Shown here one piece after another: positions 7,791 through 64,000 of a DNA stretch of 64,000 nucleotides. A program made the position numbers and the translations under genes. The stretch covers positions 3,286,001 to 3,350,000 of the forward strand of contig CDPCPM010000164.1 in assembly GCA_976551045.1 (NCBI GenBank), written 5' to 3'. Position 1 is the first letter of the stretch. Each line of letters opens with the position of its first letter. The notes under the pieces are model-generated. The model worked only from the letters and a program-made list of their open reading frames with translations. It did not search any database and was not told the origin of the DNA. This DNA comes from Glaucostegus cemiculus. Taxonomy: Eukaryota.

Positions 7791-9099
7791 ATGGCTGTGC
7801 AGTGCTTTGGGATGTCAGATAAGGTGTTACATGAATGCAAGGCTGCTCTTACCTTCTCAGTGGGAGAGCTGCCATTATGTGAGGGAGCTGCCTGTGATGG
7901 GCAGTACACCTTCCAGTCTTCTGTGGACCTTCTCCAGTCACCAGCCTAGGGGCCAGAACTGGAGCCCCAATGAGAGAGACCAGGTATGCTCCTTTATTCT
8001 TTAATTGGTGGCTTAAGCTGGAGGGTTCACCTCCCTTGCAAATATAGAAAGTAAGAATAACTCCAAAAAAAAAAACCCCATCAGTTAAAAGAAATGGAGC
8101 AAAAAGCTTCCAACATATCACTTCAAACTAAGTTGTAACACCTGGCAGGGGTGGGCTGATAGGACGGGGCAACCCTGTTCTGAAGAAAGGTCTTCAATGT
8201 GAAGCATCAACGGCTTCTGTTTCACAGATGCTGCCTGACCTGATGAGTGTTTCCAGTATTTCCTGTTTTGTTATTTGAGATTTCCAACATCTGCATTTTT
8301 TTTTCCATTTATAACGCAGGGTCCCACCTAGCAAAAAGTTAATTCAGCATCAGTGCGAGAAAATGTGTCATCACGTTGTGATCAATGGACAAAATAAACA
8401 TTGGTGGTCTCTGAGCCTTCTCTCGCACTCTCTCTCTTGCTCTCTCTCACTCCACTGCTGTATTTCCTGTTCCTCTCTCCTCCCCCCCACCCCCGTATTT
8501 TATAAATGAGCAGTCAAAACGTCCACCATTTGGGTTGGCATGCAGTGTCTCGTCTTGCATCACCCACCAGTGAGCAGGGTGCATTTATTGAGCCTGCTGA
8601 AGTTCTCATGTAGTTGATGCCACTCTCTGTCTTCGGGGAACACCAGAGCAGTGTTCGGCTCTTGACACGGGGGCTGAGATGCCTGAAGGGTCTAATTCTG
8701 TCTGTTCTCTGGAGGAGATGGCAGAGATGCATCTCTCGTAGCTCACTCCTAGAATGTGTATGTGCTGAAGTGCAAATTAATACCTTTTATTTAGCTAAAA
8801 TTGAGTCCTACAGCATGGAAACATGCCCTTTGGTCCACCAAGCTCCTGCTGACTGTCAACCATCCATTTCCACCCAATTACATTAATTCCATTTTTTTAA
8901 TGCTCCCTGCATACTCATCAACTCCTCCAGATTCTGTCACTACCTACACTCTGGGAATAACTTGCAGTGGCCAATTAACTACCAACCTATACGTCTTTGG
9001 AATGTTGTAGGAAACCAAAACTTCGGGGGGGGGGGGTGAGAAACCCATGCAGTTACAGGGAGAACATGCACATTCCACACAGAGTGCCTGATGTCAGGA

Positions 9100-9779
9100 T
9101 TACATAGAACATAGATACCTGCAGCACAATTCAGGCCCTTCGGCCCACAAAGCTGAGTCGAACATGTCCCCACACTATTAGGCTTACCCTTAACCTTCTA
9201 TCTTATTTACCTCCATGTACCTACCCAAAAGTCTCTTGAAAGACCCTAACGTATCCACCTCCACCACCATCTCTGGCAGCCCATTCCACGCACTCACCAC
9301 TCCCTGGGTAAAAAACTTACCCTTAACATCTCCCCTATATCTTCCCCCCAGCACCTTAAACCTATGTCCTCTTGTGGCCACCATTTCAGCCCTGGGGAAA
9401 AGCCTCCGACTATCTACCCTATCCATACCCCTCATCATCTTGTACACCTCAATCAGGTCCCCCCTCATCCTCCGTCTCTCCGAGGAGAAAAGGCCGAGTT
9501 CCCGTAACCTGCTCTCATAAGGCATGCTCCTCATCCCAGGCAGCATCCTCGTAAACCTCCCCTGCACCCTCTCTATAGCTTCCACATCTTTCCTGTAGTG
9601 AGGCGACCAGAACTGAACACAATACTCCAGGTGGGGTCTGACCAGGGACCTATACAACTGAAGCATTACCTCCCTACTCCTAAATTCAATCCCTCGACCG
9701 ATGAAGGACAACACACCATACGCCTTCCTAACCACAGAGTCAACCTGCGCAGCCGCCTTGAGCGTCCTATGGACTATGG
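9100..9779 (-). mobile_element. Young CR1/HER1-type LINE 3' fragment (C-terminal ORF2 still open) inserted into an HE1 SINE
   Basis: Uninterrupted ORF with LYRSLVRPHLEYCVQFWSPHYRKD...RRRMRGDLIEVYKMM...TRGHRFK...FFTQGVVSAWNGLP; ctatgt tail. HE1 halves at about 8800-9100 and 9780-9830. Confidence 0.92.
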
Positions 9780-9874
9780 ATTGAACCTGGGTCTCTGGCA
9801 CTGTGAGGCAGCAGCTCTACAAGCTGTGCCAATCTGTGTGAGTGGATATCACTAACAGAAATCATCACTAGGGG

Positions 9875-11723: not shown

Positions 11724-12660
11724 CTCTAAAGCAGGACTTCAACCTGTATATTTCTGAAATTGGGATACAGGAGAGCTGCCTGCTAAGGCTATGTTGTCAC
11801 TGGTGTGAGATGCTTTGAATTGTTGGACTTGCTGTGGAAGAGCCTCTGAACTGGGAGCACCTGGTTTCTCCATGGCTTCTTGGCATTCCCACAGCTTGTC
11901 TGCCCAACAGGACAAGTACTTGGAAATTCAAACCCCTGACTCTCGGCCCTTGTATCAATGGTTACTTTTGACGGGACCATGCATAACCTAATAGATATGC
12001 TTGAACTTGTAACCCCTGACCTTTTGCAGAACTCTCTTGCCTCAAACATTGCGCCAGCAAAAAAAATGGTAGTAACATTGAACGCAATTTACCAAGAAAT
12101 GTCAGGGTGATTCTGGTCTGCCTATTCACATGGTATTGTATATCACCCGACACAGTTGCCTGTAATGCTAATCCCTTGGGAAAGGAATAAAACTCTTCAC
12201 TTTTCAACAACTCAGAACTTTCTGTACTTTATCCAAAATTGTTTATCCTGTTCTCCCAGATTCTGTTATCCCAGATAAGATACGGCAATTAGCTCTAGTT
12301 TCTATCTCCATCTTTTACTGTGCTTGTCTTTCTCAGACTTAATGCTTCAGGAAGCCCTTCCCTCTAACTCCTTACTCTTGGAATTGTGCCTGACCTGCAG
12401 CACGGAAGTGGGCCATTCGTTCCAACTGGTCTGTGCTATGTTTATGCTTCACTTGAGTCTTTCCCGCCATGCTTCACCTCCTATTAACTGAAGTTGTGAA
12501 TCCAGATTGCAAGTTACCGTCGTTTAACTGTGTCAAAGCTGTGACTCGCTACGTAGTACTTTTTTAGCTATTGTTTGTCTGGCCCTAAGGATATTGATGC
12601 TCACTTTTTCCTGTGGCCTAACCACCCAACTAGAGCTCGAGCAAACCCATCTATTTATCC

Positions 12661-12910
12661 ACAAGACACCGCAGAAGCTGAAATCTGGAGCAATACACGG
12701 CTGGTCAGACAGCATCTATGGAGGGAAATAGTCGATGTTTCCGGTCGAGACTCTTCATCAGTACTTTCCAGACCTCTTGTATGATAAGATGGACTTTTGA
12801 CCTCGCAATCTGGACCAGGTGAAGGGGGTCATAACCCAAAATGCCGATTGTCCATTTCCCTCCATAAATGCTGCCTGACCTGCTGAGTTCCTCCAGTGCT
12901 TGTGTGTCAC
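12661..12910. mobile_element. PLE-derived fold-back element with two opposed hammerhead remnants and a short Rex/Babar-like spacer
   Basis: Minus strand CTGATGA-AGAGTCTCGACCG-GAAAC-ATC at about 12761-12734; plus strand caggtga-agggggtcataaccc-aaaat at about 12816-12842; inverted arms. Confidence 0.75.
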
Positions 12911-18445: not shown

Positions 18446-19405
18446 GCCCTTCCCCCCCCCCCCATGCTATTGTGCCGCCCCGGGAGACGTTCACGGCATT
18501 CGGCATTGTGAAATGATCTGCAGTGTTTACAGGATATGTGGTGGCGACGTCTAGATGCTTGCAGCAAGGTTCCTTTGCTGAGTCTATCACCCCCTTTGCT
18601 TTCAGGGACTGTACAGGTGCAAAGGAATTGTGAAACTTCAATGTAATTGATTTGCAAGGTTTAAAAAAATTCACATCCCCACAGGCTCTATGAAAGTGAA
18701 CAAGTCCTCTGCTCATTGGGTTGCTTCCAAGAGCTCTGTATTTATTAGTCTGTGAAATAGATGGCCTGGGAGTTGAAAGGTGAAGGCCTTTGAATAATTG
18801 GTTTGTAATGCATGAGAAATTAAACCAGTAGTCACGGAGGTGCCCCAAACACTGTGAAAACAAAGGGCAATGTGCCATCTAGATATGTTCTCCTCCCCCT
18901 GCATCTACTGCTGTGATTGAAATATTTTGGTTATAATTACCAGCGTGAATTTGCTCATTCCTTAATCTGTTATGGTGCTGAATTTTAATGAGCATGTAAA
19001 TATTTAACAGGGAATATTTGCTTCAGCTGCATGTTTGCCTTACAGAAACTAATAGGCAGGAGTAAATAAATAGGAGTTGACAAGATTGGAATAGTAGATG
19101 ACCTCTGCATGAAATGTTCTGATTAGAGCTTTATCAGTTTCAATGCCAATTAGCCTCTCTTTTCTCCTTTTATTGAAGATGTTACAGTGGTCCCTGACAA
19201 GTGGGCCTTGAGATAAGGCGGGGAGAGAAGGAGATGTGTGTCCGAGCGAGAACTGCTGACAATGCCTTCAGTATATTTGGCTGTGGCAAATGCCATCCGA
19301 CAAAGAACAGCATCTTGCCCTACTTTCTTCTGCAGCGTTGTTGTGGGCTAACTGCGGTTAATTGTGCAAGGAGAGGCAAGGCACATTGATGAGGCTGATC
19401 CACAT

Positions 19406-19540
19406 CAGTCCAGGTGAAGGGTCTGGACCCGAAATGTCGACTGTCTGTTTCCTTCCATAGATGCTGCCTGACCCGCTGAGTTCCTCCAGCTCCTTTGTGT
19501 GTTGCTCCAGATCTCCAGCAACTGCAGTCTCTTGTGTCTC
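19406..19540 (+). mobile_element. PLE pLTR half-element beginning exactly at the hammerhead motif
   Basis: CAGTC CAGGTGA A GGGT CTGG ACCC GAAAT GTC GACTG (19406-19443), followed by the family arm ending gcagtctcttgtgtctc. Confidence 0.75.
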
Positions 19541-19765
19541 TTAATCTGACTGAACTTTTTTGGTTTCAAAATTTATTCCAAACTGGGTGATACTGCTGTT
19601 CCATAAGCCTCTTGTGCCCTCACAGCTGGTTTTGTATCTCAGTACCATTTTCCTGCACTTGCCCCTTTTACCCTTAAACATGTATTGACCTCAGTCTTGG
19701 ATTCATGCAGCTCCACAGCCCTGTTCTGTTAGGAACGAGATGTGGAAACATTGGCACTTTATTGA

Positions 19766-19962
19766 GACACAGAAGACTGCAGATGCTGGAATCTGGAGCA
19801 ACAAATAAGGTGCTAGAGGAACTCAGCAGGTCAGGCAGCATCGGTGGAGGGAAGTGAACAGTTGACATTTACCAATTTTTGGGTCAAGACCCAAAACGTT
19901 GACTGTCCATTTCCCTCCACAGATGCTGCCTGACCTGCTGAGTTCCTCTAGCACTTTGTTTT
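19766..19962. mobile_element. PLE-derived fold-back (hairpin) element with TSD
   Basis: Inverted arms (tgctagaggaactcagcaggtcaggcagcatc...gagggaa versus ttccctcc...gatgctgcctgacctgctgagttcctctagca). Flanking direct repeat TTG(G/C)CACTTTATTGA at 19751-19765 and 19963-19977. Confidence 0.85.
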
Positions 19963-20419
19963 TTGCCACTTTATTGAATTGCTTTTGATGCTTCTCTTGA
20001 AAAGACCTCTGGCTCTTTCCATTTTGCCCTTTGTTAATCTTACCCCCCTCCCCTCCCCTCTCCCACATCTCCCAATGAATGTGGACCTGTCGCTCTGTAA
20101 AGAGTTAGTTTTGGGAAGAACCCCATCTCTTCCTGTTTGGATAGCACAACGATGTACATCATTAAGAACTTCCAATTATAAGCAACTTGAGCAAAATTCT
20201 CCATGCCAGACCTATTAGACAATTTTGAACACTCTGTCAAATGAAATATTAGGACAGATAAAGCTTGTTCAAGTGAGGTGGATTTGAAGGAGTGACTTAA
20301 AGGCAGGAACAGAGGCTAGAAAGCTGTAGGAAGTAAAATCCCAGGCTTGGCTACCAATATTGGAGTGGTGAAAATGGAAGAAACTAAATTTGGAGGAGAG
20401 TACGTATCTTGGAGGGTTA

Positions 20420-21235: not shown

Positions 21236-21487
21236 GTATATGGGAGAAGGAACTGAGAACAGAGCACTTGGATTCTTGATAAACAAGGGAGATGAAAGGT
21301 TATTGTGGATGAGCAGAATGAAAAGTTGATGTAACACTTTTTCCACATAGAGGGTGATACTGTATGGAACGAGCTGCCAGAGGAATTGGTTGAGGAGGGT
21401 ACAATAACAGCATTTAAAAGACATTTGGACAGGTACATGGCTAGGAAAGGTTTACAGGGATATGGACCAAATGCTGGGAAATGGGGA

Positions 21488-21650
21488 CACAGAAAATTCT
21501 GCAGATGCTGGAATCTGGAGCAATACACAAAAGGTACTCGGAACTCAGCAAGTCAGGCGACATCCATGGAGGGAAATGAACAGTCGACGTTTCAGGCTAA
21601 GACCCTTCTTCAGGACTGGAAAGGAAGAGGGCAGAAGCCAGAAGCTGGGA
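21488..21650 (-). mobile_element. PLE-derived pLTR fragment inserted in a CR1 3' end
   Basis: ctgcagatgctggaatctggagcaa...ggaactcagc...gggaaatgaacagtcgacgtttc, same family as 49715-49820. Confidence 0.75.
21581..21618 (-). ncRNA. Minimal type I hammerhead ribozyme motif (PLE type), catalytic core intact
   Basis: Minus strand CAGTC CTGAAGA A GGGTCTTAGCCT GAAAC GTC GACTG: stem I CAGTC/GACTG, CUGANGA box, short stem II, GAAA, palindromic minimal stem III (ACGT), GUC cleavage triplet. Confidence 0.7.
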
Positions 21651-22909
21651 AAAGGTGGTACATGGTGACTGGCAAGAGAATTAGAGGCAATGCAAGGGAA
21701 TATCTTTTTTAAGTAGAGTCATTTGGATTCAAAATGTACTGCTTGTAAAGGGTGATGGAACCAACTGCAACAAATGATCTGCTGGAGGAACTTATCTGTG
21801 TTGATATTTCAGATGGGCATCTTGGTCAGCATGGTGAGTTGGGCCAAAGGGTCTTTTTTCCTGTTGTATGACCCTGTAACCCTCCAAAATACCTACTCTC
21901 CTCCAACCTCCAGCCAAATTACATGGCAGAGCAGCTTGAGAGGCTGACTCTTGCTCCTACTTCTCACATTAGGATTTTAAGCTCTTAAAATGATCATTTT
22001 GTCAGCAAACTGGTGCTGCAAGGAGTGTTGGGAGTCTTATGGAGCTTGGCATTTTATTGGTTAAATCAAGACTTGAAAGTATTGCTGCTTGCTTCTAATC
22101 AGAATGCACGTGTATCAGCCATGCACAATGGGAGGCACTGTGAATTGACTTTCCCCCTTTGGCCATTAGTGTTTTTACTGCTGCACCAATGCAACACATG
22201 ACATTTCAGAAGAAAGCTCGATTGTCTGCCCTAGATACTGAACAGCACAGTGATTGCCCATGTCTGCATAGTATTTCACAGAGCACAGAGGTACTTGAAA
22301 GGTCTTTCCTGTTATGCCCGGGAACTTTTCCAGGCAGCCAACCCAGAATTCTCCCAGGCCGCAGGATTCAGTCGGTGCCTGCGTAGAACGGGAATGCACG
22401 TGTGCAAAATGGAGGCTGGTGTCTGACTGTCCTGGATTCGGTTGTGTCTGCACGGGCCTGGTTCCAGCTGTTGGACAGACCTGGTCACGGTGGGGGGTGG
22501 GATTTATTTTTCAGTTTATCAGAATCATGTTGGCAGCCCATGCTGGCTATTTAGAGAGGTGAATGTTTCACTGCAGACATCCTATCTATTCCTAGCAAGC
22601 TGTCTTCTCTTCTGTATGAGCTGCTTTTGAGAATGATTATCAAACAGTTCACCAATTGTGTCGGTGTTGTTTAGAGACTGGGTACGTTTAACTGATCATA
22701 CAGTTGAAATGCCTTGCTGATTGTTGGGGATTAATTTATAAGCAGCAGGGTACAGCATTGAAAGAAACCATCTAGACTGGCTCTTTCTTAAAGTTTAATT
22801 GTACTCCCCTCTTCTTTCCTCATTGCTCTGTAATTTTTCTTCCCTTCATGTACTTAAGCAGCTCTCGTTAACACTCAGTACTACATTTGTTTTCATTAGA
22901 GAAGAGGAC

Positions 22910-23128
22910 ACTCATGAGACTGCAGAAGATTGAATCTGGAGTAACAAACAATTTGCTGGAAGAACTCAGCAGGTCAAGCAGCATATGTGTTTGTGGGGGG
23001 GGAGGGGGTGGTAAAGAATTTGTCAACACTTCAGGTCGAAACCCTGCAACACAACCTGATCCTGATGTAGGGTTTTGACCCGAAGCATCAATGCAGATGA
23101 GTGCCTCCAGCAGATTATTTGTTGCAGT
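22910..23128. mobile_element. PLE-derived fold-back element
   Basis: gagactgcagaagattgaatctggagtaacaaac...; ctgatgt-agggttttgaccc-gaag; ...cctccagcagattatttgttgc. Confidence 0.7.
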
Positions 23129-24130: not shown

Positions 24131-25258
24131 TAGAATGAGTGCTTGGATAAAGCAGTTAAGCTCAGTACCCCATGTGCTCTTTCAACAGCCTTCCCTCCTC
24201 TTTTCCTGCTTCTTTCCAATTTGACCATTTAGTTCCAAAGTTCTCACCTCAGTCTCCCAAGTTATTGGAATTCCTCCTGTTAGAAGAGGGGGAAGAAAAG
24301 AACTTGCACTTAATCAACTTGTATCGTTCACGATTTAAGTTTGTCACAAAACTTTTTACCAGAAATACTGGACATAATCAGCAGGTCAGACGACATGTGG
24401 GGAGACGAACAGAATTAACATTTCAACCACGTTTCCCTTCTAATGCAGCTTCCCAGCATAGAGCAATACAGCACAGATACAGGCCCTTCTGCCCAACAGG
24501 TCCATGCTTGACAGCATATTGTGTTTGACTTTTCTCTGGACCCCAGTTACGTGGACCCCACCTCCTCACACATGGTCAAATTGTTTTAGATAATACCACA
24601 ACTTGGCTAGCCTGGAATCCTTTTTATTTTAAGGAAAAGCAAAGACAGCTTCACTGGAGCACAATTTTGTTCCCACTTCTCACCCTCCCAGCTGTCTCCA
24701 CCTTCACCCTTCCCTTCCCCCCCCACCTGCCTCCAACTACCTTTTTTTGCCTACCTCCACCTATCATCCACCTGCCTCCGATTCCCAACTCCATTACTTC
24801 CCCTCCCCTACCCGCCTCCATCTGCCCATCATCTTTCATCTCTCCTCAGTCCACCAATCACCTACTGGCCCCTGTCTCAGCCCTCTTTCCTCCAATTGGC
24901 TATCCTCAACTCAAAACATCAGCAATTCCTGCACCCTGTGTCCCCAAACGTTTCTTGACCTGTTGAGTTCCTCCAGCAGACTGTTTGTTACAACTTCATC
25001 ACCCTTTCCCCTATTCATAAATTCCTGACAGCTGGAATAGCAGTGTATGAGAACGCAATGTGATTGACTTCTAGTGAACTTCTGAGCTTAAGGGAATTGC
25101 CTGCAATGTACATAGGCTGTTAGCAGATAAATTATGGAGGGAAGAGGTTATCAAGCATATAATTGGCACAGGTAACTGACCTAACTATGCTAGCAACACC
25201 GAGGATGAACAGGCAACACAATCATACAGTTCATCTCTACTGTATCTGATGACAGTAC

Positions 25259-29694: not shown

Positions 29695-31050
29695 GTAAGG
29701 TCGAGTTTATTGCCAAATGTACGTACGTGTTTGCACAGGTGCAATGAAAATCTTGCTTGCAGCAGCAGAACAGGCACGTAGCATTAGAGACACAACATTC
29801 AAAAGAAAAACATAAATTAAGCATTAAGTTATACAGTATTATCCAAGAAAGAACTCAATTAGAACAAAAAACCAGAGTCCATTATCGTGCATAAGTGGTC
29901 ATTATGTTGTAATACTGAGGTCGTGATTGGGGTTGTGCCGGTTGGTTCAAGAAGATAAGATATTTTTATTAGTCACATGTACATCAAAACACATAGTGAA
30001 ATGCATCTCTTGCGTAGAGTGTTCTGGGGGCAGCCCACAAGTGTCACCACGCTTCCGGTGCCAACATAGCATACCCATAGCTCCTAACCCATACATCTTT
30101 GGAATGTGGGAGGAAACCAGAGCACCCGGAGGAAACCCATGCAGTCACAGGGAGAATGTACAAACTCCTTACAGTCAGCGGCCGGAATTGAACCCGGGTC
30201 GCCAGCACTGTAATAGCGTTACACTAACCGCTGCACTATCGTGCCTGCCCACTCACAATTTTATCAAATTGGTTGAAGGGAAGTAGCTGTTCCTGAACCT
30301 GATGATATGGGACGTCAGGCTTCTGTACCGCCTGCCCAATAGTATCTGCGAGAAGATGGCATGGCTTGAAAGGTGAATGAAATGTAATCTAATTGTTTGC
30401 AAGGTAGTTGACACTGAAGAATCAGAGTCAGGTTTATTGTCACTGACATACATCGCGAAATTTGTTTTGCAGCAGCAGTATAGTGCAAGACATAAGTTAC
30501 AAAAATAAATAAATAGTGCAAAGATAGTGTTCATGGACCATACAGAAATCTGATGGTGGAGGGGAAGAAGCTGTTTCTGAAACATTGAGTGTGGGTCTTC
30601 AGGCTCCTGTACCTCCTCCCTTATGGTAGTAACAAGAGGGCATGTCCCGGATGGTGAGGGTCCTTAATGATGGATGGTGCCTTCTTGAGGCACAGGCTCT
30701 TGAAGTTGTCCTTGCTGGCAGGGAGGGTTGTGCCTGTGATGGAGCTGGCTGAGTCTACAACGCTGTGCAGCCCTTTTCGTTCCTGTGCATTGGAGCCTCC
30801 ATACCAGGCAGTGATGCAACTAGTCAGAATGCTCTCCACCGTACATCTGTAGAAATTTGCCAGAGTCTTAGGTGACATACCAAATCTCCTCAACCTCCCG
30901 ATGAAGTAGAGCCACTGGCATGCCGCCTTTGTGATTGCATCAATGTGTTGGGCCTGAGATGGATCCTCTGAGATGTTGATGCCTAGGAACTTGAAGCTGC
31001 TCACCTTTTCCACAGCTGATCCCTCAGTGAAGACTTGTGTATGTTCTCCC
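29695..31050 (-). mobile_element. Cluster of Rex1/Babar-type 3' fragments (two subfamilies) with an inserted V-SINE
   Basis: FKFLGINISED...LRRFGMSPKTLANFYRCTVESILTSCITAWYG; GRRYRSLTSHIIRFRNSYFP. Confidence 0.85.
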
Positions 31051-31747
31051 GACCTGGTGCTGGCAAATTCTATTCAAGCTCATTCACGGGCAGCAGGTCG
31101 AAAAGTGATTACCTTTTTGCTTGTGGGCCCATTATCAGAGCAGTCACAATCTCAGTGGCCTCCAGAGTGTGCATGACTGTGGCAAAGGCTCTGTTTAGCT
31201 CCATAGCAGAGTGACAAGGCTAGGAAAGGGACCATAACAACAAGACCCCTGTCCATGCCCCACTGTATATTTAATGTGGGCTTCACAGTGGTGAATTATC
31301 TGTTAAATTCTGATCACAGACTGCTGAATGTGACAGGATATTGATTGGAACCACTAGCTAGCCAGGCCGGATAACAAGTGGATGTGCTGAACTCGTCCCG
31401 AGGTTCTCCAGTGAATTCAGAAAATGAAAGGAAGATGTAAAGTTAAGGAGATTCAGCAGGGTAGCTGGAGAGAAACCTTACCTTGAAAAGGTCAGGGAAT
31501 AGAGAGCATGGATAAGAATCTTAAAATTTGAGCCAACGTAGAGTCACGGAATCAAGCAGCAGGGAAACAGGCCCTTTGGCCCACTGAGTCCATGCTGACC
31601 ATGAACCAGCTATTTACACTAATGCTGCTTTAATTCAATTTTTTTTATTATCTCTACATTCTCATCAACTCCCTCCAGATTCTACCATTCACCTGCCCAC
31701 TAGAAGCAATTTACAGTGGCTGAGTAACCTACCAACCCTCGCATGAG

Positions 31748-32045
31748 GTGCGCATGGTAGTCTAGCGGTTAGCATAATGCTATTACAGCGCCAGCGACCC
31801 GGGTTCAATTCCTGCCGCTGTCTGTAAGGAGTTTGTACATTCTCCCTATGTCTGTGTAGGTTTCCTCCAGGTGCCCTGGTTTCCTCCCACATTCCAAAGA
31901 CTTACGGGTTAGGAAGTTGTGGGCATGCTACATTGGCACCGGAAGCATGGCGACACTTGCGGGCTGCTCACAGAACACTCTATGCAAAAGATGTATTTCA
32001 CTGTGTGTTTCAATGTACATGTGACTAATAAAGATATATTATCTT
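31748..32045 (+). mobile_element. V-SINE with Rex/Babar-like tail, inserted into an HE1 copy; other copies at about 1-157(-), 15750-16035(-), 23797-24075(+), 29953-30248(-), 44840-45127(-), 46365-46635(+)
   Basis: Head ggtagtctagcggttagcataatgctattacagcgccagcgacccgggttcaattcc, V-domain, then ggttaggaagttgtgggcatgct...tttcactgtgtgtttcaatgtacatgtgactaataaagata. Confidence 0.85.
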
Positions 32046-35000
32046 TGGAATGTGGGAGGAAACCAGAGCACCCGGATGAAACCCACGCAGCCACAGGGAG
32101 AATGTGCAAACTCCACACAGGCAGCACCCGAGGTCAGGATTGAAACTGGGTTTGTGGTGTTTGGGAGTATTTATTTAGTCATAGGCATGGACATCACTGG
32201 TGATTAATGTCTGTTCCTAACTGCCCCTGGATGGATTGATCAGATTTGAACCAGAGTCTTTCCTGTTCCCTGATTTTATTGTAGAAGGGCATCACACCCC
32301 CAACTAAACAAAGATTAGGAATATTAGGAAGGAATGGTCGGAAAATCCCAAGCTTGGGCTAAGTTTACAATTGTAGGTGAGAGTGAATTCTGATTAGCTG
32401 AAGGAGCATTGTTCTCCTGGGTGTAAAAGGTAGGATTGCCATGGGATTGACCTGGATTCTTCCGGAATTACTGGACACCACCTCCAGGAACTAAAGATTA
32501 ATCTCCCAGCCACTGCCACAGGGAACACAAAGGACATAAAATTATAGGAACAGTACATTTTGTCCCACTGAATACTTTCTTTCATATGTTGTATAAAATT
32601 ATTGGAGAAGGGAGAGGAATAAAAATTCTCTTTGAATAGGAAGCATCTAATGAACTATTTGGAAATAGATCCAGCAATGGGAATGCAGGATTAAGAAGCT
32701 GGGAAAGTTAGCTGTACACTAGGACAAACAATACACAGCATAATTCCAGTGCCTTGAGCAACTGTATAATTGGAGAGGCTGCTCTTGTTACTGTAATCTG
32801 TGCCCTCCCCCCCCCCACCCCCATCCCATAACACAATTCCAAAAGCTAGCATTCCCATTTTTTTAGTGTGAATTAGTGGAAATTTCCTCTCTAAACACTG
32901 TGACTTGGTGTCTCAGTTGCAAAGCACTCAATTCTCATCAGGGTATTAGTTAATTTGTTCCCTTAATTCAATTTTCTTGGAAGTATTGGTTGGTGTCCAG
33001 CATTGTAAGCCAAGAATTAGGTGCAGCCCTTTGTAAAGGATCACTCTCAGTGTTGTTAAGATTTAAAACCCACTTGCTTCTTCTGCTTTAGCCCCTCTTT
33101 CCATACCAGGGAAGTATGAGCACAGGTCATGCACCCACAATGCCTACACCAGTCCATCAACCCCAGTAAGCCACGTCCGATGCACCAATGCTGTCACACA
33201 CCATCCCCAGCACAATGCGTGAGGGAATGCACAGTGCAGTCTTTTCACTGTATGAAGCACCAGTGACACTGAGGGAACTTTCAAACTAGCTTGATTTCTT
33301 CTGTTCTACAAGAGTTGCCTGCAGTGGCCACTCCTGCAAATACTGATCCATTCCCTACGATCTCTTCCCACACTTCCGAGAGACCATGCCACCCATCCCA
33401 AGGACAGGCTGCCTTTGCAGGAAGTCCTGCATTAACGAGCAGTCAAATGCAGAAGTTCAAAAATCAGCTGACAGATGAAAAGAAACACAAGGCACAGAAG
33501 GGTCCATTCAACCCATCGTGTCTGGACAAGCCCTTTTTCAAGGGCTGTCTGGTTGGTGGAACTCCCCAACATGGTCTCCACTGCTCTCAATCTCTTTCCC
33601 TTTTCAATTACTTGCCAATTTCGAGAGTTTCCGTCAAATCCGCTTCCACTGCTCGCCTTGGATGACCACCTGGTCCAAAAGTATGTGGCTTCCAGTAAAC
33701 CAGCCTGAAGCTGCCTGGAATTTCATTAGTGGGGTGTCTCCTGAGATAGTAGAATGGATTGGTGCAGAAAAGTCCTTACCCTTTCTCCCCACTCCCCTCA
33801 GTGCAGAGGTCAGAGAAGCTTAGGTATGACCTCATCCCTAGCTGGTCAGTTAGGAGCTAACACCATATAAGCCAGTCTCCCTTCTCTCCCAACCACTAAA
33901 CAATCTACAGTATAGGAGTAAGAGTCGGGTCTCCAACCTCCAGGGACTGACCCAGCTATCAATTAAATCATGGCTGATCTGTATCTTAATCCAGCCATCA
34001 TTTGATATATCCTTTAACCAGCACCTGAAATTAATTGCTGTCAACTCCAGTTTCTGTACTTTCAGTTGATTTTCAGTTACAACTTTTTGGGAGACAGATT
34101 TCAAGATTGTACAAGTTTCCAAACACGTTAGGAAGTTGTGGGCATACTGTGTTGGTGTCGAAAGCATAGCAACACTTGTGGGCTGCCCCCCAAAAATCAC
34201 TATGCAAAAGATGTGTTTCACTGTGTGTTTCAATGTACATGTGACTAATAAAGATCTTATAACATGGAAGGAGAGGCCATTTGCCCCATCAAGTCTATTG
34301 CCAGCTCTCAGAGCATTCCCATCAGTCCCTTTCCCCCACTTATTTCCTTGTAACCTATTCTCTCCCACCCGCCCATCAATTCCCCCCTGATCCTCCAACT
34401 ACCCACCTATACCAGGAGTAATTTACAGCACCCAATCCATCCACCAACTCCCACGTCTTGGATACATGGGGGAAACAGGAGCACCTGGGAGAAACCCGCA
34501 CAGTCAGAGGGACAACGTGAAAACTCCACGCAGAGAGCGCCCGAGGTCAGGATGGAACCCGGGTCGCTGGCACTGTGAGGGAGTAGCACTACCTGCTGAA
34601 CCACATGGGAATTTAACAACGTTTGTGGTATGGCTTTCTCCATTACAACAGCACCAATGGTTTTAAATTGCTCCCTTGCATTTTGGGGCATCCTTACATC
34701 ATGAAGATGGTTGAAGGAATAATAGTCTTCTAGTAGAGATGAGGAAGTGTTTGACAGGGGTAAACTGTCAAGATAACAGGCCCATTGCACTGTACTTTGA
34801 ATCTCAGTCCCCAGGCTTCCTTATAGTCAGACTGTTTACAGCTTTATATTTAATTGGTAGATTATATGTCATGCTGGTAATATTTGTGACTTGAGTAGAA
34901 GTAGTGGGGAGTAATGAGCACTGTCCCTTTAAATTAATCATGAAGGATTTATTTTGAGAGTCTTGTGTTCTTCTCTCTTTCAGATAGAATGTCAGCAGCT

Positions 35001-48428: not shown

Positions 48429-48467
48429 GGACCCCAGATACAGTGGACATTGTGACAGTTCATCACC
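48429..48467 (+). other. LZTS2: 5' UTR portion of LZTS2 coding exon 1
   Basis: Long (CT)n/T polypyrimidine tract at 48385-48420, followed by AG at 48427-48428 and a second AG at 48436-48437. Confidence 0.7.
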
Positions 48468-48926
48468 ATGGCAATGGTTCAGGCGATGCCCATAGCTTCT
48501 GAGCATCAGAGTCCGGAGAGTGGGGCGAGTCTGCAAACTTCTGCACCGTCGCCAGTCTTGCCGAGCACCATGGGTAGTGTTGGCAGCCTTGTCTCAGGAC
48601 GTAACTACCATGACAAGCACTGCAAAGCCACAGAGTACGGCAGCAAGTGTCGCAAAACCAGCCAGATACAGAACATTTTCAGGCAACAGGATGGGCACCT
48701 AAAAAATGGCTACTCTCAGGACTGCATTGGTGGAATGGCGACCAAGAAGCAGAATGGGAACTATGCACACCTAAAAGACGACCGGCGCAATGGAGGCTGG
48801 AATATGATAGAGTCGCCTGCCAGTCCTTGCAGTGATCCCGAGGACGTGCGGGAGGGAAAGTCGGTCAATGGAAACATCCGGGGTCCTCCTCCAAAGATAA
48901 TTCCGGTGTCGGGCAAGCTTGAGAAG
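48468..48926 (+). CDS. LZTS2: LZTS2 (leucine zipper tumor suppressor 2) coding exon 1, aa 1-153
   Basis: Kozak caccATGG at 48468. The peptide MAMVQAMP...MGSVGSLVSGR...FRQQDG...SPCSDPED...RGPPPKIIPVSGKLEK matches the LZTS2 N-terminus. Pyrimidine tract and acceptor ttgccAG at 48427-48428; donor AAG|gtaaga at 48927; 459 nt, phase 0. Confidence 0.93.
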
Positions 48927-49714
48927 GTAAGATCACACTGAGGACTTTCCCTGGGGATGTGGCAGTGAGCTGTGTTACATATTCAAAGCTACGGGCCTTC
49001 ACACATGCTTTTGGTTTATTATTGTCACATGTACCAAGATACAGTGTAAATCTTTGTTTTGCATGTCATCCAGACAGATCACTCCAAACATAGAACATAC
49101 AACAGCACAGCACAGGAAAAGGCTCTTCAACCAACGATCTTGTGCCGGACTAATTAAACTAATGACATCTTTTGTCTGCATGTGATTCATGTCCCTCCAT
49201 TCTTTGCATAGGATGGCTAGGATGTTGTGCCCAGCTGTTGAAGGTGGGGTTAGGAGTCTGTTCGGAGGGGACGGATGAAATCGGAGACCCACAGAGGAAC
49301 TGCAGCAAAACTTAACTCAGCATCGGCCAGGTTCCACATGCCCAGCTCTGTGGACTGGATACCCCCTTTAAGTATCAGCAAAGTGAACCCTTGCATTTGT
49401 AGCATGGGTGGGCCACACACGCTGCAGATGAAACGTTGTCCAGGTGTTGGATGTCTGCTTACCTCCTTGTCTTCCCAAGTCATGCACTTGCAAAGCCCAG
49501 AAGCAATGTCACGGATATTGCAATTGATGCAATAAGAACCCGGCTGTGCTCAGGTCTATGCCAGCTCACAGGGCAATCCCATCAATCCCATTCTCCTACA
49601 TATTTCCTAGTAACCTATTCTCTCACATATGCTCATTAACTGATTTTCCCATCCACCTGGTATAGGTGTGATTTATAGTTAAGAATTAATCTTACAACCA
49701 ACATGCGGTTATAA

Positions 49715-50220
49715 AAGATGAAAAACACAGTGATGCTGGAGGAACTCAGCAGGCCAGGCAGCATCCATGGAGAAAAGCAGGCAGTCAACGTTTTGAGTCA
49801 GGACCCTTCTTCAGGACTGAAGATGGTAAAAGGGGAAGCCCAATATATAGGAGGGAAAAGCAGAGCAGTGATAGGTGGACAAATGAGGGGAGGTGGGGTG
49901 GATACAAGGTGGTGATAGGTAGATGCAGGTAAGAGACAGTGATAGGCAGGTGAAAGAAGAAAAGAAGAAGCATGGTGTGGGGGGGAAAGGGTGTGGGGAT
50001 TACTTAAAGTGGGAGAATTCAATGTTCATGCCATTATACTGCAAGGCTCCAAGACGGAAACTGAGGTGCTGTTCCTCCAGTTTGCGCTTGGAATTCTGGC
50101 AGTGGCGGAGGCCGAGGACTGACGTATCTGTGATAGTGGGGGAGTTGACGTGACTGGTAACAGGCAGCTGCAGATCGCGGTTATGGACAGAGCGCAGGTG
50201 TTCTGCGAAACAGTCACCTC
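49715..50220 (-). mobile_element. Penelope-like element 3' fragment: GIY-YIG endonuclease C-terminus plus 3' UTR/pLTR with degenerate hammerhead
   Basis: Minus strand 50218-50000 reads GDCFAEHLRSVHNRDLQLPVTSHVNSPTITDTSVLGLRHCQNSKRKLEEQHLSFRLGALQYNGMNIEFSHFK*, typical of the end of a PLE GIY-YIG domain. It is followed by a pyrimidine-rich UTR and CAGTC-CTGAAGA-AGGGTCCTGACTC-AAAAC-GTT-GACTG at 49819-49782. Confidence 0.85.
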
Positions 50221-51189
50221 CCCGGCACCTGCCTATAATTCTTCTAAACTCTGGTTATGCCAGTCACACTTCATAGTATAAACTCTGCATCCCGGGAACC
50301 AATGGAGAGAGAGAGTACATTACATTGATTTCAAAGCCTTCATTCGATACAGACACCAAAACCGCACACAGTTCTAACAGCATGGTATACAATTCATGCA
50401 AGATTAAAATACAAAAAAGGTCCAATATATTTTGTAATATTTATACAGTAGAATTACAATAGACAAATAAAATTAGTCGTCTTAGTGCTAGAATAAGAAA
50501 AAAGTGAGATTTGTGTGGGTGGGTGAGTGCTTAATATTTGGTACGGTCAGTGGGCCAAAAAGGTCCTGTTGCCGTGCTGTATGACCATCAGATTTTCCAA
50601 GTGTAATATGGTTCAGTCACAAACTCGGCACAGGACAGTGGCAGTTCAGCTCTGACAGCTCCAGTTCTCCAGGTTTCATTCTGATGTCCAGTACTGTATG
50701 TGTGGAGTTCGCATGTTCTTGCAGTGACCACATGGGCTTCCTCCCATATCCCAATACTCCAAGTGCGATGTAACCAGTACAGATGCAGTGTAACATCCCA
50801 ACTTTTATAACCACATGAGAAACAAAGGACTGCAGATGCTGGATTCCAGAGGGAAAACACTATGATGCATTTAGAAGGATTGGCAAATTGGGTGCCAATA
50901 AAGTAGCTTCCTACTGCTGGGGAGGCCAGAATTAAGGGGCATGGTGTCAGCATAAGTGGTCAACCATTTAGAACAGAGGTGAAGAGAAATCTCCTTGCAT
51001 AGTGGGTTGGAATTCCCTCCCTCGGAGGAGAAAATGAGATGGATTAAAACTTTGGACGATATGAATCAGAGGATATGGGATCTGGTGAAGAAGTGGACTG
51101 GGGCCACAGGATCAGATAATAACATTGAATTGCAGAGCAGGGTTGAGAGCTTCTCACACTTTTGCACTCTTGTACGTCAGTCCATTACA

Positions 51190-53023: not shown

Positions 53024-53151
53024 NNNNNNNNNNNNNNNNNNNNNNNNNNNNNNNNNNNNNNNNNNNNNNNNNNNNNNNNNNNNNNNNNNNNNNNNNNNNN
53101 NNNNNNNNNNNNNNNNNNNNNNNNNNNNNNNNNNNNNNNNNNNNNNNNNNN
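53024..53151. other. Assembly gap (128 N), next to a (CT)n microsatellite at about 53213-53266
   Basis: Run of n in the sequence. Confidence 0.99.
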
Positions 53152-53412: not shown

Positions 53413-53620
53413 AAAATATCACAGATGCTGGAAATCTAAAATGATCAGCAAAAGTTGAAAACACTCGGTAGGTCAGGCAGCATTGGTGGGGAGAGAAACC
53501 AAGTTAACATTTCAGGTTGATGGCATTTGATCAGAAATCTGCACCACATCAGGGTTTGACCTATTGAGCATTTCCATCTTTTGCTTTTGGCTTTTATTTC
53601 AGATTTCTAGCATCTGCAGT
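53413..53620. mobile_element. Older PLE-derived fold-back element (similar old copies at about 870-1040, 8180-8300 and 24660-24990)
   Basis: cagatgctggaaatct...ggtcaggcagcat... / ...ttatttcagatttctagcatctgcagt inverted arms. Confidence 0.6.
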
Positions 53621-55770
53621 TTACACATTTGTTTACATTAAATGTCACCCATTTTCTTCCCAGAGTTTATTGAATTGTCAAAGTGCTTGTGGTAATTATC
53701 AAGAACTCAAATTTTTTTCCAAGCACTTGTTCCCTGGGAAGAGATGCAATTGTTGGCTAAGTGTTTGCTGTTGCTTTTAATCAGTTGGGACTAGCAGCTT
53801 TCTGTGAATCTTGTAACATCAACTCTTTCACAACCTCTTCATCTTCTGCCCAATCATTTAGTGATGCCAAAAATGTCAGTGCTAATGCAGCCTTGTGATA
53901 AAATGGTATTGGTTTAAATTGCTCAGTGCAGGGCCAGACTAGCCTATGGTAGCAGTTTGAGCTCTGACCTACTTTACACAATACAAAAGTCTGCTCCTGG
54001 AACTGGGAAGAAGCTTCGTTGCAGCAGGTGCGTTTGAATGAAGGGATCCAGGTTTGATCCTGACGTCTGTGTGGAATTTTCACGTTCTCGCCAGGACTGC
54101 GTGGGTTTCCTCCGGGTACTCCGGTTTCCTCTCACATCCCAAAGACGTGGTGGTAGGTTAAAGAGCTGCTGTGTCAGTCAATGACTGAAAAAAGGGTTGG
54201 GGAATCATAAACTAGAGGCACAGGTTTAAGGTGAGAGGATTTAAAAGGGACCCAAGGGGCAACTTCTTCATGCAAACGGTGGTGGGTACATGGAACGAAC
54301 TGCCGGGGGAAGAGGTTGACAGATACAATAATGTTTGGACAGGTACATGGACAAGAAAGGTTTAGGGGGATATGAGCCAAATACAGGCAAATGGGACTAG
54401 CTTAGATGGGCATCTTGGTCGGCATGGACAAGTTAGACCGAAGGGCCTGTTTCCGTGCTGTATGACTCTGCCTCTATTGCCAAAGGGGAGTTGATGGGTA
54501 TATGGAAGAGGGAATAATTTGTCGGATACAGGGAAATAATGGGAATAAAGGGGTGGTCCCCTGAGATCTGGCCTGAACCTGCCGAGTTGAATGATCTCCT
54601 GTTAACTAAGCAGTGTTTATTTACATAATGCACTGACCCTTTCATCTACAAAGTCTCCCTGTATTGGGGGGCAGGAGAGGGAAACAGACTGCATCAAGGG
54701 GTACTCTCTCGCCTGTAGAGTGTGCGGTAGGTGGTCACTTTATGGAGGTGGTTACCTCCGAATACTGCAGTGCACCCAGTGGGTTTCCGGGGCCATTTTG
54801 GTCTGAGCTCAATTGAGAGAAGTCTGCCCGAGTTTCTGGAACAGTGGAGTAGCCTGATGGTTTAGGTTGAGGATGCAGAGAACCTTAACCCAATAAAGAA
54901 AAGTTGTCTTGAGGCTCTCCCCTCTATGTACTATTTCTGTAAAGTTGATCTATTTTAAAATGAACAGCATGAGGACAGCCCAGATAGAGCTGCTGACTCA
55001 CAGCTCCAGTGACCCGGGTTCAATCCCGACCTCCGGTGCTGTTGGCGTGCAGTTTGCGTGTTCTGCCTATGACCACGGCTGCTCCGATTTCCTCCCACGT
55101 CACCAGGCATGTGGGTTGGTCGGTTGGTCTCTCTGAATTGTCCATCGTGTTTAGGGGGGCTCGGTGGGAATGTGGGGAGAATAACATGCGTTACTGTAGG
55201 AGGAGGCCAGAGGAAGTGGGAGAGGTGGGTGCAATTATGACTTTTGAAAGGCATTTGGACAGGAATATGGATAGGAAAGGGTTGAAGGGATAATGGCCAA
55301 ATGCAGGCAAAGGCAACTTGGTCGGCATGGACAAGTTGGGCTGAAGAACGTTTCCATACTATATAGGTCTATGACCCTCTGTGTATAATTGGGAGTGCTT
55401 AATGGTTAGTGTGTACCACTAGGCTGAAGGGACTGTTTCCATGCTGTATATCCCCTATCGAGGGTGACCATGAGTGGCTGTAATGACTTCAGTCAGCTGC
55501 ACACTGGTTGCCAACTACCAGTGATTGATGCATTCCTTTTTATTGACTGTCCCCGGAGCCTGGTATTGTTTTATAGACCACTGCTGGCCAAGGCCCATTC
55601 AGTATTAAAAGGGAACTGACTGCTTAAGGCAACGCTACCAAAGCTTTGCTGTTCTCTTTTGTAGTGGGGATAAATGGGAGATGTAAGGTATTAGCGCCGT
55701 GTCATGTTAGTTGTGTCTGTTGACTGTATCATCATCACCATCATTTCTTCACCTTTCCTCAGTTCGATTC

Positions 55771-56830: not shown

Positions 56831-56890
56831 TATGAGCAACCTCTCTATTTGGATCTTCCCTGTGTGATTTAATGTCCGATTGTGTTTCAG

Positions 56891-57760
56891 AACATTGAGA
56901 AAAACCTAATCAGGCCAACAGCGTTCAAGCCCGTTATGCCCAAGAACAGGAACTCTGTCCAGTACCTCGTTCCCCGTCCCACCAATGGATTGTCGGACAG
57001 TCAAGGGAGCCTAAATATCGTCTTCAATGGGAATTCACTGGGGTCTGTCAGCTGCGCCGAGAAACGGAACTCACTCCAGAGCTATGGTTGTCCCCGGAGC
57101 AGCGCGCAGTCGGGAAACCTCTCGGACTCTGGGAGGAACTCTTTGTCCAGCCTGCCCACCTACAGCACGGGCTGCAGCCAGCAGCTGGAGGCGGTCAGCT
57201 CCTCCACAGGGCACATCAACCTGGAGGGAGGCGGAGGGCAGCAGGGCTTCCACGAGAGAGGCGCAGCCTCGCTGAATGGCCTGTCCAACTCAGACAGCGG
57301 CCGCTCTTCCTCCAGCAAGAGCACGGCCTCGCTGAGCGGCCGCGCCCCGCCGCTGTCGGACGGTGAGCGCTCGCCCGGCGCCAGCCACGACCTGGTGGTG
57401 CGGGAGCTGGAGGAGAGGCTGCGGGAGCGTGAGGCCGAGCTGCGGCAGCTGAGGGAGAGCCTGGAGGAGAATGAGGCGGCCCTGTGCCAGATCTACGAGG
57501 AGAAGCAGCGGCGCTGCGAGCAGGAGATGGAGGAGCTGCGGCAGAGCTGCGCCGGCAAGCTGCGGCAGAGCTCGCAGAAGGCGCAACGGGTGCAGCAGGT
57601 GCTGCAGCTGCAGGTCTACCAGCTGCAGCAGGAGAAGAAGAAGCTGCAGGAGGACTTCACTCAGCTGCTGCAGGAGCGCGAGCTCCTCGAGAAGAAGTGC
57701 GCCTCCATCGAGAAGGAGCAGACAGAGCTGGGGCCGCGGCTGGAGGAAACCAAGTGGGAG
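56891..57760 (+). CDS. LZTS2: LZTS2 coding exon 2, aa 154-443 (Ser-rich region and start of the coiled coil / Fez1 domain)
   Basis: Acceptor tgtttcAG|AAC at 56889-56890. Peptide NIEKNLIRPTAFKPV...LSDSGRNSLSSLPTYSTG...SDSGRSSSSKS...LQLQVYQLQQEKKKLQEDF...LEETKWE. Donor GAG|gtaggc at 57761; 870 nt, phase 0. Confidence 0.95.
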
Positions 57761-58385
57761 GTAGGCAGATGTCCATGGTCACCATGGTGACAGGGACCCA
57801 ATGGGAGATAGGCAGGTGCCCGCAGTCACCACGTGACAGGGACCCAATGGGAGATAGGCAGGTTCCCATGGTCACCACGGTGACAGGGACCCAATGGGGG
57901 ATAGGCAGTCGTCCACAGTCACCATGGTGACAAGGACCCAGTGGGGGATAGACAGGCACCCACGGTCACCACGGTGACAGTCACCCAATGGGGGATAGGC
58001 AGGCACCCACAGTCACCATGGTGGGGACACAATAGGGGATAGGCAGGCACCCACGGTCACCAAGGTGACAGTGACCCAATGGGGGATAGGCAGGTCACCA
58101 CGGTCATGGACCCAATGAGAGATAGGCAGGAGACCATGGTCACAATGCAACGGGAACCCAGTGGGGGTAAGCAGGCATCCAAGGTAATTGTGTCGATGGA
58201 GACCCAAGTGGGAGTTAGGCAAGTACCCACGGTCACCATGGCAACAAAGACCCAAGTGGGTGGTAAGCAGACATCCATGGTCACCACGGCGACAGGGACC
58301 CAATGGGAGGTAGGCAGGCGTCTAAGCTCACCGTGGTGATGGGGACCAGTGTGAGGTAGGCAGGCACCCATGGTCACCATGGCAA
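57748..58385 (+). repeat. ~47-bp minisatellite, about 13-14 diverged copies, first unit overlapping the LZTS2 exon 2 donor
   Basis: Unit gacccaatgggagataggcaggttcccatggtcaccacggtgacagg (57841-57887). Units start at 57748, 57795, 57841, 57888 and onward. Confidence 0.92.
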
Positions 58386-59449: not shown

Positions 59450-60151
59450 GTTTGTCAGAAGTCTGGAGAGATTTCGCTCCTGAAGCAACAGCTAAAAGAC
59501 TCCCAGGCTGATCTGGCCATGAAGAGCAACGAAATAGTCTCCTTGAAAGCACAGCTCCGTGATATACGAGCCGAGTTACAGGACCACGAGGATGAGATTC
59601 ACGAGTTCCGAGATTCGGTCCACACCAAGACCTTGGAGCTGGAGGTGTGCGAGAACGAACTTCAGCGCAAGAAGAATGAGGCTGAACTTTTGAGGGAGAA
59701 GGTGGGCAAGCTGGAGCAGGAGACCACTGGCCTGAGGGAAGCCCTGGGCAACACGAGACATGCAATTGGTCCCTACCCTGAGCGGGAGGACACTTTCCTG
59801 ATGTACGAGAGCGACGAAGCCAAGGTCCAGCGGCAAAACGCAGACAACCAACAGAGCCTTAGACAGCAAATGGAAAAGCTGAGGGCTGAGCTCATGTATG
59901 AAAGGAGGAGGAGCGAGACTCAGTTGCAGAACTTTGAGGTGGAGCGGCGCACGTGGCAAGGAGAGAAGGAGAAGGTAATTAGGTACCAAAAACAGCTCCA
60001 GCACAACTACATCCAGATGTACAGGAGGAACCGCGAGCTGGAGAGAGAAATGAGGCAACTCAGTCTGGAACTGGAAGCCAGGGAATTAGATGACCTTGAA
60101 GTGCGAAATGAAGACATTCGATTTGATGAGATCACTGCAACAGAAATCTAA
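59450..60151 (+). CDS. LZTS2: LZTS2 last coding exon, aa 444-676 (Fez1 coiled coil, C-terminal PDZ-binding motif TEI)
   Basis: Acceptor cctctAG|GTT at 59448-59449. Peptide VCQKSGEISLLKQQLK...ESDEAKVQR...EKEKVIRYQKQLQHNYIQMYRRNR...FDEITATEI-stop, in frame with exon 2 (ETKWE|VCQKSGEI is the LZTS family junction). Confidence 0.95.
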   Translation, partial: VCQKSGEISLLKQQLKDSQADLAMKSNEIVSLKAQLRDIRAELQDHEDEIHEFRDSVHTKTLELEVCENELQRKKNEAELLREKVGKLEQETTGLREALGNTRHAIGPYPEREDTFLMYESDEAKVQRQNADNQQSLRQQMEKLRAELMYERRRSETQLQNFEVERRTWQGEKEKVIRYQKQLQHNYIQMYRRNRELEREMRQLSLELEARELDDLEVRNEDIRFDEITATEI

Positions 60152-62140: not shown

Positions 62141-62159
62141 GGGCTGTTAACTAATGTTG

Positions 62160-62350
62160 GAGACACACAGACTGCAGATGGTAGAAGCTGGAGCAACACA
62201 CAAAGTGCTGGAGGATCTCAGTGGGTCAGGCAGCATCTGTGGAGTGAAAGGGACAGTCAATGTTTCAGGTCAAGACCCAAAACATCAATAGTCCACTCCA
62301 ATAGGTGCTGCCTGACTCACTGAGTTCCTCCAGCACACTGTGTGTTGCTA
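62160..62350. mobile_element. PLE-derived fold-back element with 13-bp TSD
   Basis: Same inverted arms; TTAACTAATGTTG at 62147-62159 and 62351-62363. Confidence 0.85.
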
Positions 62351-63530: not shown

Positions 63531-63544
63531 TCTGTCCTAAAACT

Positions 63545-63757: not shown

Positions 63758-64000
63758 TGTCCTAAAACTTTGTTGTGTAGCGTGGTGCAATTGTCAGCTG
63801 ATGACACTCCTTCAAGTGCCTTCAGATACTTCTGCCACTCTGAATGCAAGTTGTTGTTGCTGCTGTCTGTAAGAAAGAGTGAAAGATGGAAGTGATATTA
63901 GTGGTGAGCCATTTAAGCAGAGAGGTGTAAACCTTTGGAATCCTCCACCTCGTGGCGGTGGATGTGTAGTCGTTGTCCACACCACCCCTACCAACAGGAA

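Follow-up and report, generated by a model that had tools for sequence, protein, structure and literature searches.

At position 19764 of the DNA analysed here, a ~200-nt insert made of two inverted arms is flanked by a direct repeat. What left this insert, and does the hairpin spread as a unit or arise as a by-product of another element? The window, i.e. the whole stretch analysed, comprises 64,000 nucleotides of Glaucostegus cemiculus DNA (assembly GCA_976551045.1, contig CDPCPM010000164.1, positions 3,286,001 to 3,350,000, forward strand). The initial annotation named six such hairpins, derived them from Penelope-like elements (PLEs) and proposed a non-autonomous, ribozyme-processed retroelement. 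We recovered all six hairpins as head-to-head arm pairs.

The focal hairpin and its sister copies

The insert at 19764–19966 has two inverted arms of 73 nt with 88% complementarity. The arms are predicted to fold into a long RNA hairpin, as had been claimed; the calculated energy is −130.5 kcal/mol (z = −18.3) and 0 of 200 shuffled sequences folded equally well. The target site duplications (TSDs) of three copies differ in length and sequence (15 bp with 1 mismatch, 13 bp and 12 bp), again as annotated. The hairpins of the window represent PLE subfamilies A1, A2 and C, which are defined in the next section. Signed positions refer to the PLE sense strand; the predicted hammerhead cut lies directly 3′ of GUC, and the base that follows it is numbered +1. 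The motif reading and the numbering follow general hammerhead anatomy, checked against PMC4209133. The features are listed below.

19751–19765, no strand: left TSD of the focal hairpin; 15 bp, 1 mismatch against the right copy; the final 2 bases also match the element end
19764–19892, − strand: tail-bearing arm of the focal hairpin; PLE subfamily A1b 3′ end, from helix II of the hammerhead (~−20 relative to the cut site) up to the end of the tail (~+100)
19881–19892, no strand: junction of the focal hairpin, inside the helix II palindrome of the minimal hammerhead; ~6 nt of microhomology
19881–19966, + strand: tail-less arm of the focal hairpin; also an A1b 3′ end, ending at ~+65
19963–19977, no strand: right TSD of the focal hairpin, read directly
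12660–12907, no strand: hairpin with A1 arms and one tail; no convincing TSD
22906–23125, no strand: hairpin of subfamily A2 with one tail; both arms reach ~−30; no convincing TSD
53422–53622, no strand: hairpin of the older subfamily C; the sole case in the blind sample (see below) or window with tail sequence on both arms; no convincing TSD
62147–62363, no strand: span of A1b hairpin 62158–62349, with one tail and a helix II junction; 13-bp exact TSD at 62147/62351 (17 bp with 1 mismatch)
63533–63769, no strand: span of A1b hairpin 63546–63757 (arm pair 63546–63752), with one tail; 12-bp TSD at 63533/63758

In the 12660 hairpin, the ~49 nt between the arms (12766–12814) fit the references poorly and are possibly captured or templated filler. 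A run of 128 N, at 53024–53151, lies ~270 nt from the 53422 hairpin.

Rfam searches over the window returned no hammerhead model and only four chance-level matches; a weak match on the focal copy was to a plant miRNA model (E 1.6). In a related organism whose flanks differ by ~6%, contigs bridge the right end of the focal insert (19906–20032) and enter its left end by 28 letters, which is below our bridging rule of 31 letters. The insert is probably older than the split from that organism. In two RNA runs from another species (150-nt reads), the unique flanks had no depth and the repeats had depth on both strands, with no pile-ups of starts or ends; reads of this kind bear little on small circular RNA or on editing.

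The arms are 3′ ends of GIY-YIG PLEs

Each arm is the 3′ end of a GIY-YIG PLE, consisting of a predicted minimal hammerhead, ~65 nt and a 35-nt tail. Arms were sought with a cut-off of 18 bits; the best score in a reversed-sequence control was 8.7 bits. Clustering of 145 full arms, followed by upstream extension, yielded six related 3′ ends: A1a, A1b, A2, A3, B and C. All six have a pyrimidine-rich UTR, a predicted minimal hammerhead, ~65 nt and a tail to ~+100, and copies are 10–16% diverged from these references. Of 30 long A1a copies, 20 have PLE coding remnants upstream, as do some of the long copies of A1b, A2 and A3. Subfamily B is linked too, so that the coding link is seen for each subfamily but C, of which no long copy was recovered. 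Beyond the tail, 192 tailed arms contained no conserved continuation, only unrelated shared flanking repeats.

The initial annotation had equated the arms with the 3′ UTR beside a GIY-YIG remnant at 49715. The remnant is real and the PLE origin stands, but the element at this position belongs to a sister subfamily:

49716–50224, − strand: 5′-truncated PLE of sister subfamily B; GIY-YIG C-terminus at 50003–50224, pyrimidine-rich UTR, minimal hammerhead and tail-less end (+71)

Pfam gave no match for the 74-aa GIY-YIG remnant. A genome search with the remnant returned 35,956 candidates, and all 150 of those scored were matches. In the decayed frames of longer genomic relatives, motifs of RT type and of GIY-YIG type can be read, as can a three-Cys linker. 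The three-Cys linker lies between RT and endonuclease in two of the loci (L058 and L056); a Cys-rich linker has been ascribed to both the Neptune and Nematis clades (PMC8557442). One longer piece matched GIY-YIG clusters in the Atlas at a cosine of 0.96–0.97, and Pfam GIY-YIG was returned for one of three longer pieces at E 0.06, below the cut-off. The copies show the hallmarks of EN+ PLEs: RT and then a C-terminal GIY-YIG upstream of the repeat end; a predicted minimal type I hammerhead in the pLTR, with core, helices I and II and a palindromic helix III in the references; an optional 30–40 nt tail on one side of inverted inserts; and a TSD of variable length.

One contig region, C17:6383886-6457050 (L051, L052), contains at least nine identical matches spaced by ~5.95 kb or multiples of it. 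In 20 kb of this array, the tandem unit includes a decayed subfamily B PLE fragment.

Abundance and target site duplications

Our blind sample consisted of sixty 10-kb stretches at round coordinates, 600 kb in total, of the 2.85-Gb assembly. It held 105 PLE elements: 86 single ends and 19 head-to-head pairs, 18 of the pairs being short. The claim of high genome abundance is therefore borne out. Extrapolation gives a total of ~85,000 hairpins (Poisson 51,000–135,000, or ~50,000–135,000), assuming that the large contigs sampled are typical. Because arms were paired only where their 5′ ends lay within 70 nt, longer inverted inserts may be represented among the singles by their halves. Search loci and the sequence around them supplied another 39 pairs, of which 29 had been chosen for likeness to the copy at 19766; these are reported apart.

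TSDs with a score of at least 9 flank 7 of the 24 blind and window hairpins with flanks (0 of 300 shuffled pairs), with lengths of 12–17 nt. They flank 17 of the 39 other hairpins (0.7% in shuffled pairs; 9–18 nt) and 9 of 55 short solos (0.3%; 9–15 nt). Overall, TSD lengths are 9–18 nt and mostly 12–16, in keeping with the variable length first noted. Old subfamily C copies rarely keep a TSD. Hairpins and solos have TSDs of equal size and hence a common endonuclease signature.

One tail per hairpin

The 3′ ends of the arms are bimodal, at ~+65 and ~+100. Exactly one tail is present in all 19 blind pairs, in 24 of 25 pairs when the window is included (binomial p ~2e-6 against 0.5) and in 59 of 64 pairs overall; four of the 64 have two tails and one has none. 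Among solos, 43 of 86 have the tail. For the 24 hairpins defined by TSDs, the ends fall at +94 to +105 and at +48 to +82. The tail-less end of hairpins is also the tail-less end of solos. Tail-to-tail neighbours within 70 nt numbered 0, against 64 head-to-head pairs. The one-tail layout extends to longer inverted inserts of 470–590 nt (L104, L134 and L148). Primer–template overlap averaged 1.4 nt at each insertion end, a figure that has no null and is inflated by maximal TSD extension.

The head-to-head pLTR with its one-sided tail is already known from published PLEs, and a tail on one end of inverted inserts has been described qualitatively (PMC8557442, PMC3846280). The regularity reported here (exactly one tail, half of solos tailed, either arm longer, microhomology and stops at the hammerhead edge) was not found in the published literature searched. 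In L100:953-1290 and L107:814-1290, at the long end of the series, the inversion junctions lie within the GIY-YIG coding region.

Junctions and 5′ stops

Junctions were analysed in the 60 pairs of up to 330 nt; four longer pairs were excluded. The junctions are distinct in 53 of 60 pairs (23 of 24 in the blind sample and window), with calls uncertain by a few bases because the copies are 10–16% diverged. Some junctions recur in pairs, and the recurring ones sit on built-in microhomologies of helix I or II. Arm 5′ ends span −76 to +58. Microhomology of at least 3 nt is found at 15 of 54 filler-free junctions, against 7% expected (A1b reference), and at 6 of 23 in the blind and window set (p 0.005). 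There is no microhomology at 25 of the 54, and filler is present in 6 of 60 pairs. Of the 60 pairs, 25 have a tail arm that extends further 5′ and 28 a tail-less arm that does so, while in 7 neither arm exceeds the other. If a single cDNA had snapped back, the loop would lie on the tail arm, and this model hence fails for the 28.

Both arms pass the ribozyme cut site in 42 of 60 hairpins. Hence, the usual template would be uncleaved RNA, as in vitro. In 11 of 60, an arm ends within −3 to +4 of the cut site, as would be expected from microhomology in helix I but equally from occasional cleaved templates. The annotation had placed the hammerhead at the hairpin centres. Remnants are indeed there, but the core motif is intact in only 1 of 60.

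Solo ends define a stop zone. Of 51 blind and window solos, 16 end at −37 to −20, 5 at −38 to −120 and 22 further upstream, with 0 within −5 to +5; subfamily C was omitted from this count because its upstream reference is short. The stop density is ~0.021 per base at the 5′ edge of the hammerhead against 0.002 upstream, a difference of ~10-fold, and 9 of 13 TSD-defined solos start at −23 to −34. Tailed and tail-less solos stop at this edge equally (8 each), so that the stop is set by position and not by length. It may reflect the 5′ end of the transcript, an exon boundary or arrest of RT.

Immediately 5′ of helix I, pyrimidine content is 82–88% in all six references, and in four of them this stretch closes with a splice-acceptor-like CAG at the stop site. 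The end of an intron maps to helix I in the D. virilis PLE (PMC4209133). By eye, no shared spliced first exon was seen upstream of −30 in 38 solos.

Relationships among hairpin copies

Hairpins occur in five PLE subfamilies (A1, A2, A3, B and C). In 35 one-tail A1 hairpins, the identity of both arms to the reference is 89.7%; the two arms of one hairpin agree at 85.6% and arms of different copies at 82.8%, and these last two values argue against strong conversion. Non-consensus bases common to both arms amount to 1.54, against 0.76 for the arms of different copies (0/5000 permutations). These private bases suggest one source lineage at insertion, followed by separate decay. The subfamily call is the same for both arms in 56 of 64 pairs and different in 8.

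No column separates left from right arms of A1 hairpins after correction for 66 tests (smallest p 0.011). A search for A-to-I editing in RNA-seq had been proposed as a check. The copies contain no A-to-G excess of the kind expected from an edited hairpin RNA template, and no excess in the predicted direction is present in tail arms (A>G 24/459 against T>C 65/1071) or in tail-less arms (T>C 57/1071 against A>G 37/481). Among the arms examined there are no head-to-tail arrays of three or more units, only isolated two-unit neighbours on the same strand.

Origin of the hairpins

The observations to be explained are the PLE origin, the staggered nicks, the two 3′ ends, the one-tail rule, the variable junctions and the stop zone. 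We consider it probable that each hairpin is an independent, extremely 5′-truncated GIY-YIG PLE insertion, made by asymmetric twin priming. Independent truncated PLE insertions were the outcome that the initial annotation had set against its own proposal, and they largely describe the copies; the inversion points, however, are clustered and not random.

In LINE-1 twin priming, two target nicks each prime a cDNA on the RNA; the 5′ part is inverted, the cDNAs are joined at microhomology and one TSD surrounds the insert. The two L1 cDNAs copy adjacent stretches of RNA from variable internal sites. Conversely, the cDNAs of the hairpins would copy the same stretch from two fixed starts, which would give a hairpin.

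For PLEs, we infer one cDNA per RT start per nick, joined head-to-head, with loss of either one yielding the 50:50 solos. The element protein, probably a dimer, would nick both target strands 12–17 nt apart. RT primed from either nick would copy RNA of the same kind, starting in one case at the end of the tail (~+100) and in the other ~35 nt upstream (~+65). Both cDNAs would then enter the uncleaved hammerhead and usually halt at its 5′ edge (−20 to −37). Joining of the cDNA ends, often via short microhomologies of the palindromic helices I and II, would produce a one-tail fold-back between TSDs. A single surviving cDNA would leave a solo end with or without the tail, and one cDNA running further would leave a longer inverted PLE. 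The hairpins would thus be dead by-products of PLE insertion.

The anole Poseidon PLE provides a biochemical parallel (Frangieh et al. 2024, PMC11167929). In vitro, its RT initiates at two internal positions, one at each boundary of the tail, and the protein, a predicted dimer, nicks both target strands, which are then extended. The template is uncleaved RNA, and the hammerhead lies ~100 nt upstream of the RT starts. It differs in belonging to another clade (no Cys linker); its ORF starts inside the hammerhead. Coupling of one start to each nick, and inverted products, are not described in the main text of that paper.

A stronger form of asymmetric twin priming, to which we give somewhat less than an even chance, is that PLE integration is obligately double-primed by a dimer. 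Starts 35 nt apart, one per nick, would then yield the tail, the inverted pLTR, all solos and the hairpins, and the 5′ edge of the hammerhead would be the transcript end or a programmed stop. If so, the genome preserves tens of thousands of natural products of this process.

The main alternative considered is self-priming, which we think unlikely. The template or first cDNA would fold back at the hammerhead palindrome and extend on itself, and an endonuclease would resolve the hairpin by a staggered cut, so that the tail is one-sided; the hairpin would still be a by-product of PLE insertion. Self-priming has been inferred from palindromic inverted junctions as a model for rotifer PLEs (PMC3846280), and the tail has been ascribed to endonuclease resolution (PMC8557442). 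Our junctions cluster at palindromic helices and source variants are common to both arms, as this model expects. However, snap-back of a target-primed cDNA needs the loop on the tail arm, but in 28 of 60 hairpins it is the arm without a tail that extends further. In addition, the tail-less end of hairpins is shared with solos and corresponds to a second RT start that has been demonstrated in vitro with sense RNA (PMC11167929). Self-priming on antisense RNA (PMC3846280) may still account for the hairpins.

The remaining readings place the origin elsewhere. A non-autonomous hairpin retroelement, SINE-like or retrozyme-like, with master copies, excised by the hammerhead and mobilised by PLEs, would fit the copy number (18 in 600 kb), the fixed outer ends, the TSDs and the junctions that recur in pairs; a transcribed hairpin would bear the PLE tail at its 3′ end, making occasional secondary copying possible. 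Yet SINE-like descent from masters with a common internal structure is not what we find. The junctions are distinct in 53 of 60, recurring ones lie on built-in microhomologies, and five subfamilies are represented, with no arm-specific fixed differences and no editing signature. Non-LTR retrozymes are head-to-tail tandem units with complete hammerheads, whereas the pairs here are head-to-head, the 60 hairpins include a single intact core, the cut site is crossed by both arms in 42 of them, arrays of at least three units are absent among the arms examined and solos exceed pairs by 86 to 19. Solo ends also avoid the cut site (0 of 51 within −5 to +5), where monomers would end. Hence, the proposal of a hairpin spreading as a unit is not supported, and we hold it to be very unlikely. 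About as unlikely is that two separate PLE insertions met at one site, or that long inverted PLEs lost their middle through hairpin instability. In favour of this reading, 600 kb contain as many as 105 PLE ends, there are long inverted forms that might collapse, and 8 of 64 pairs have differing subfamily calls. But both arms lie inside one TSD and the one-tail rule is strict; tail-to-tail neighbours are absent within 70 nt, against 64 head-to-head pairs; and solos halt at the same 5′ edge without a partner, so that short length needs no deletion. A MITE of a DNA transposon resembles the inserts in size (~200 nt), inverted arms and high copy number. The initial annotation had already leaned away from it, and rightly: TSD length varies from 9 to 18 nt, a 35-nt tail on one side makes the termini asymmetric, and the arms derive from the 3′ end of elements with RT and GIY-YIG. 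Neither fixed-length TSDs nor symmetric terminal inverted repeats are found; the variable TSDs and the PLE link rule a MITE out for practical purposes.

Relation to known elements

EN+ PLEs with an inverted pLTR and tail have reportedly been described in their anatomy by Evgen'ev and Arkhipova. Published EN+ PLEs share with the hairpins a head-to-head inverted 5′-truncated copy, strong 5′ truncation, a 30–40 bp tail at one end only, a TSD round the insert and palindromic junctions (PMC3846280, PMC8557442). Unlike them, the hairpins here are often just two inverted ends (~200 nt), occur at ~30 per Mb and have 5′ stops piled at the hammerhead edge. TSDs quoted for rotifer PLE copies are 8–10 bp, against 12–17 nt here (PMC3846280, PMC8557442). 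The short fold-backs are therefore known PLE insertion anatomy in miniature and not a new element.

The ribozyme is likewise familiar. PLE hammerheads are of minimal type I, with helix III reduced to a palindrome, as here (Cervera and de la Pena 2014, PMC4209133). According to that paper, most minimal motifs are dispersed single copies from truncated PLEs, Schistosoma has dual motifs 100–700 bp apart on opposite strands, and the genomes of Xenopus and coelacanth contain minimal hammerheads by the thousand. In contrast, the two motifs of our hairpins are adjoining or overlapping, and most are disrupted at the junction; junctions, tails and TSDs are not mapped in the Results of that paper. The non-LTR retrozymes (bioRxiv 10.64898/2026.07.22.740005) are also short, non-coding and derived from PLE pLTRs with a type I hammerhead, but form head-to-tail arrays with an intact ribozyme in each unit, as opposed to head-to-head pairs with broken cores.

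Searches of the open-access literature returned no account of short fold-back PLE inserts from sharks or rays; the families may be catalogued in Dfam or Repbase. The formation of PLE inverted repeats and the one-sided tail has been called undefined (PMC8557442). The minimal inserts provide a large natural data set in which a sharp rule separates twin priming from self-priming, and the one-tail rule makes the mechanism of PLE integration testable in an existing in vitro system. Repeat pipelines may misfile such inserts as MITEs or microRNA-like hairpins. Perhaps 50,000–135,000 ready-made dsRNA formers are present in the genome and could be putative substrates for editing or small RNAs.

Other PLE pieces and genes in the window

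Four further PLE pieces lie in the window.

8177–8304, + strand: solo PLE end of older subfamily C, −32 to +97
19405–19540, + strand: solo PLE end, A1b, −34 to +100; no inverted partner
21486–21643, − strand: solo PLE end, A1a, −58 to +102; 12-bp TSD (1 mismatch)
24705–24989, + strand: longer decayed A2 3′ end with UTR, tail-less

A second, unrelated fold-back at 31817–32125 has 84-nt arms that are 87% complementary and is built from another high-copy repeat. Open frames at 9193–9816 and 30624–31073 (− strand) resemble LINE reverse transcriptase C-termini; the latter frame also has a Pfam ALKBH8_N match (E 3e-5).

The window contains a gene encoding a Fez1 domain (Pfam Fez1, E 2e-74), with coding exons at 48456–48939, 56873–57788 and 59450–60149 on the + strand. 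Presumably, it belongs to the LZTS family. Two of the PLE pieces, the remnant at 49716 and hairpin 53422, lie between exons of this gene. The hairpins at 62158 and 63546 are 2–3.5 kb beyond its last exon and could fall in the 3′ UTR.
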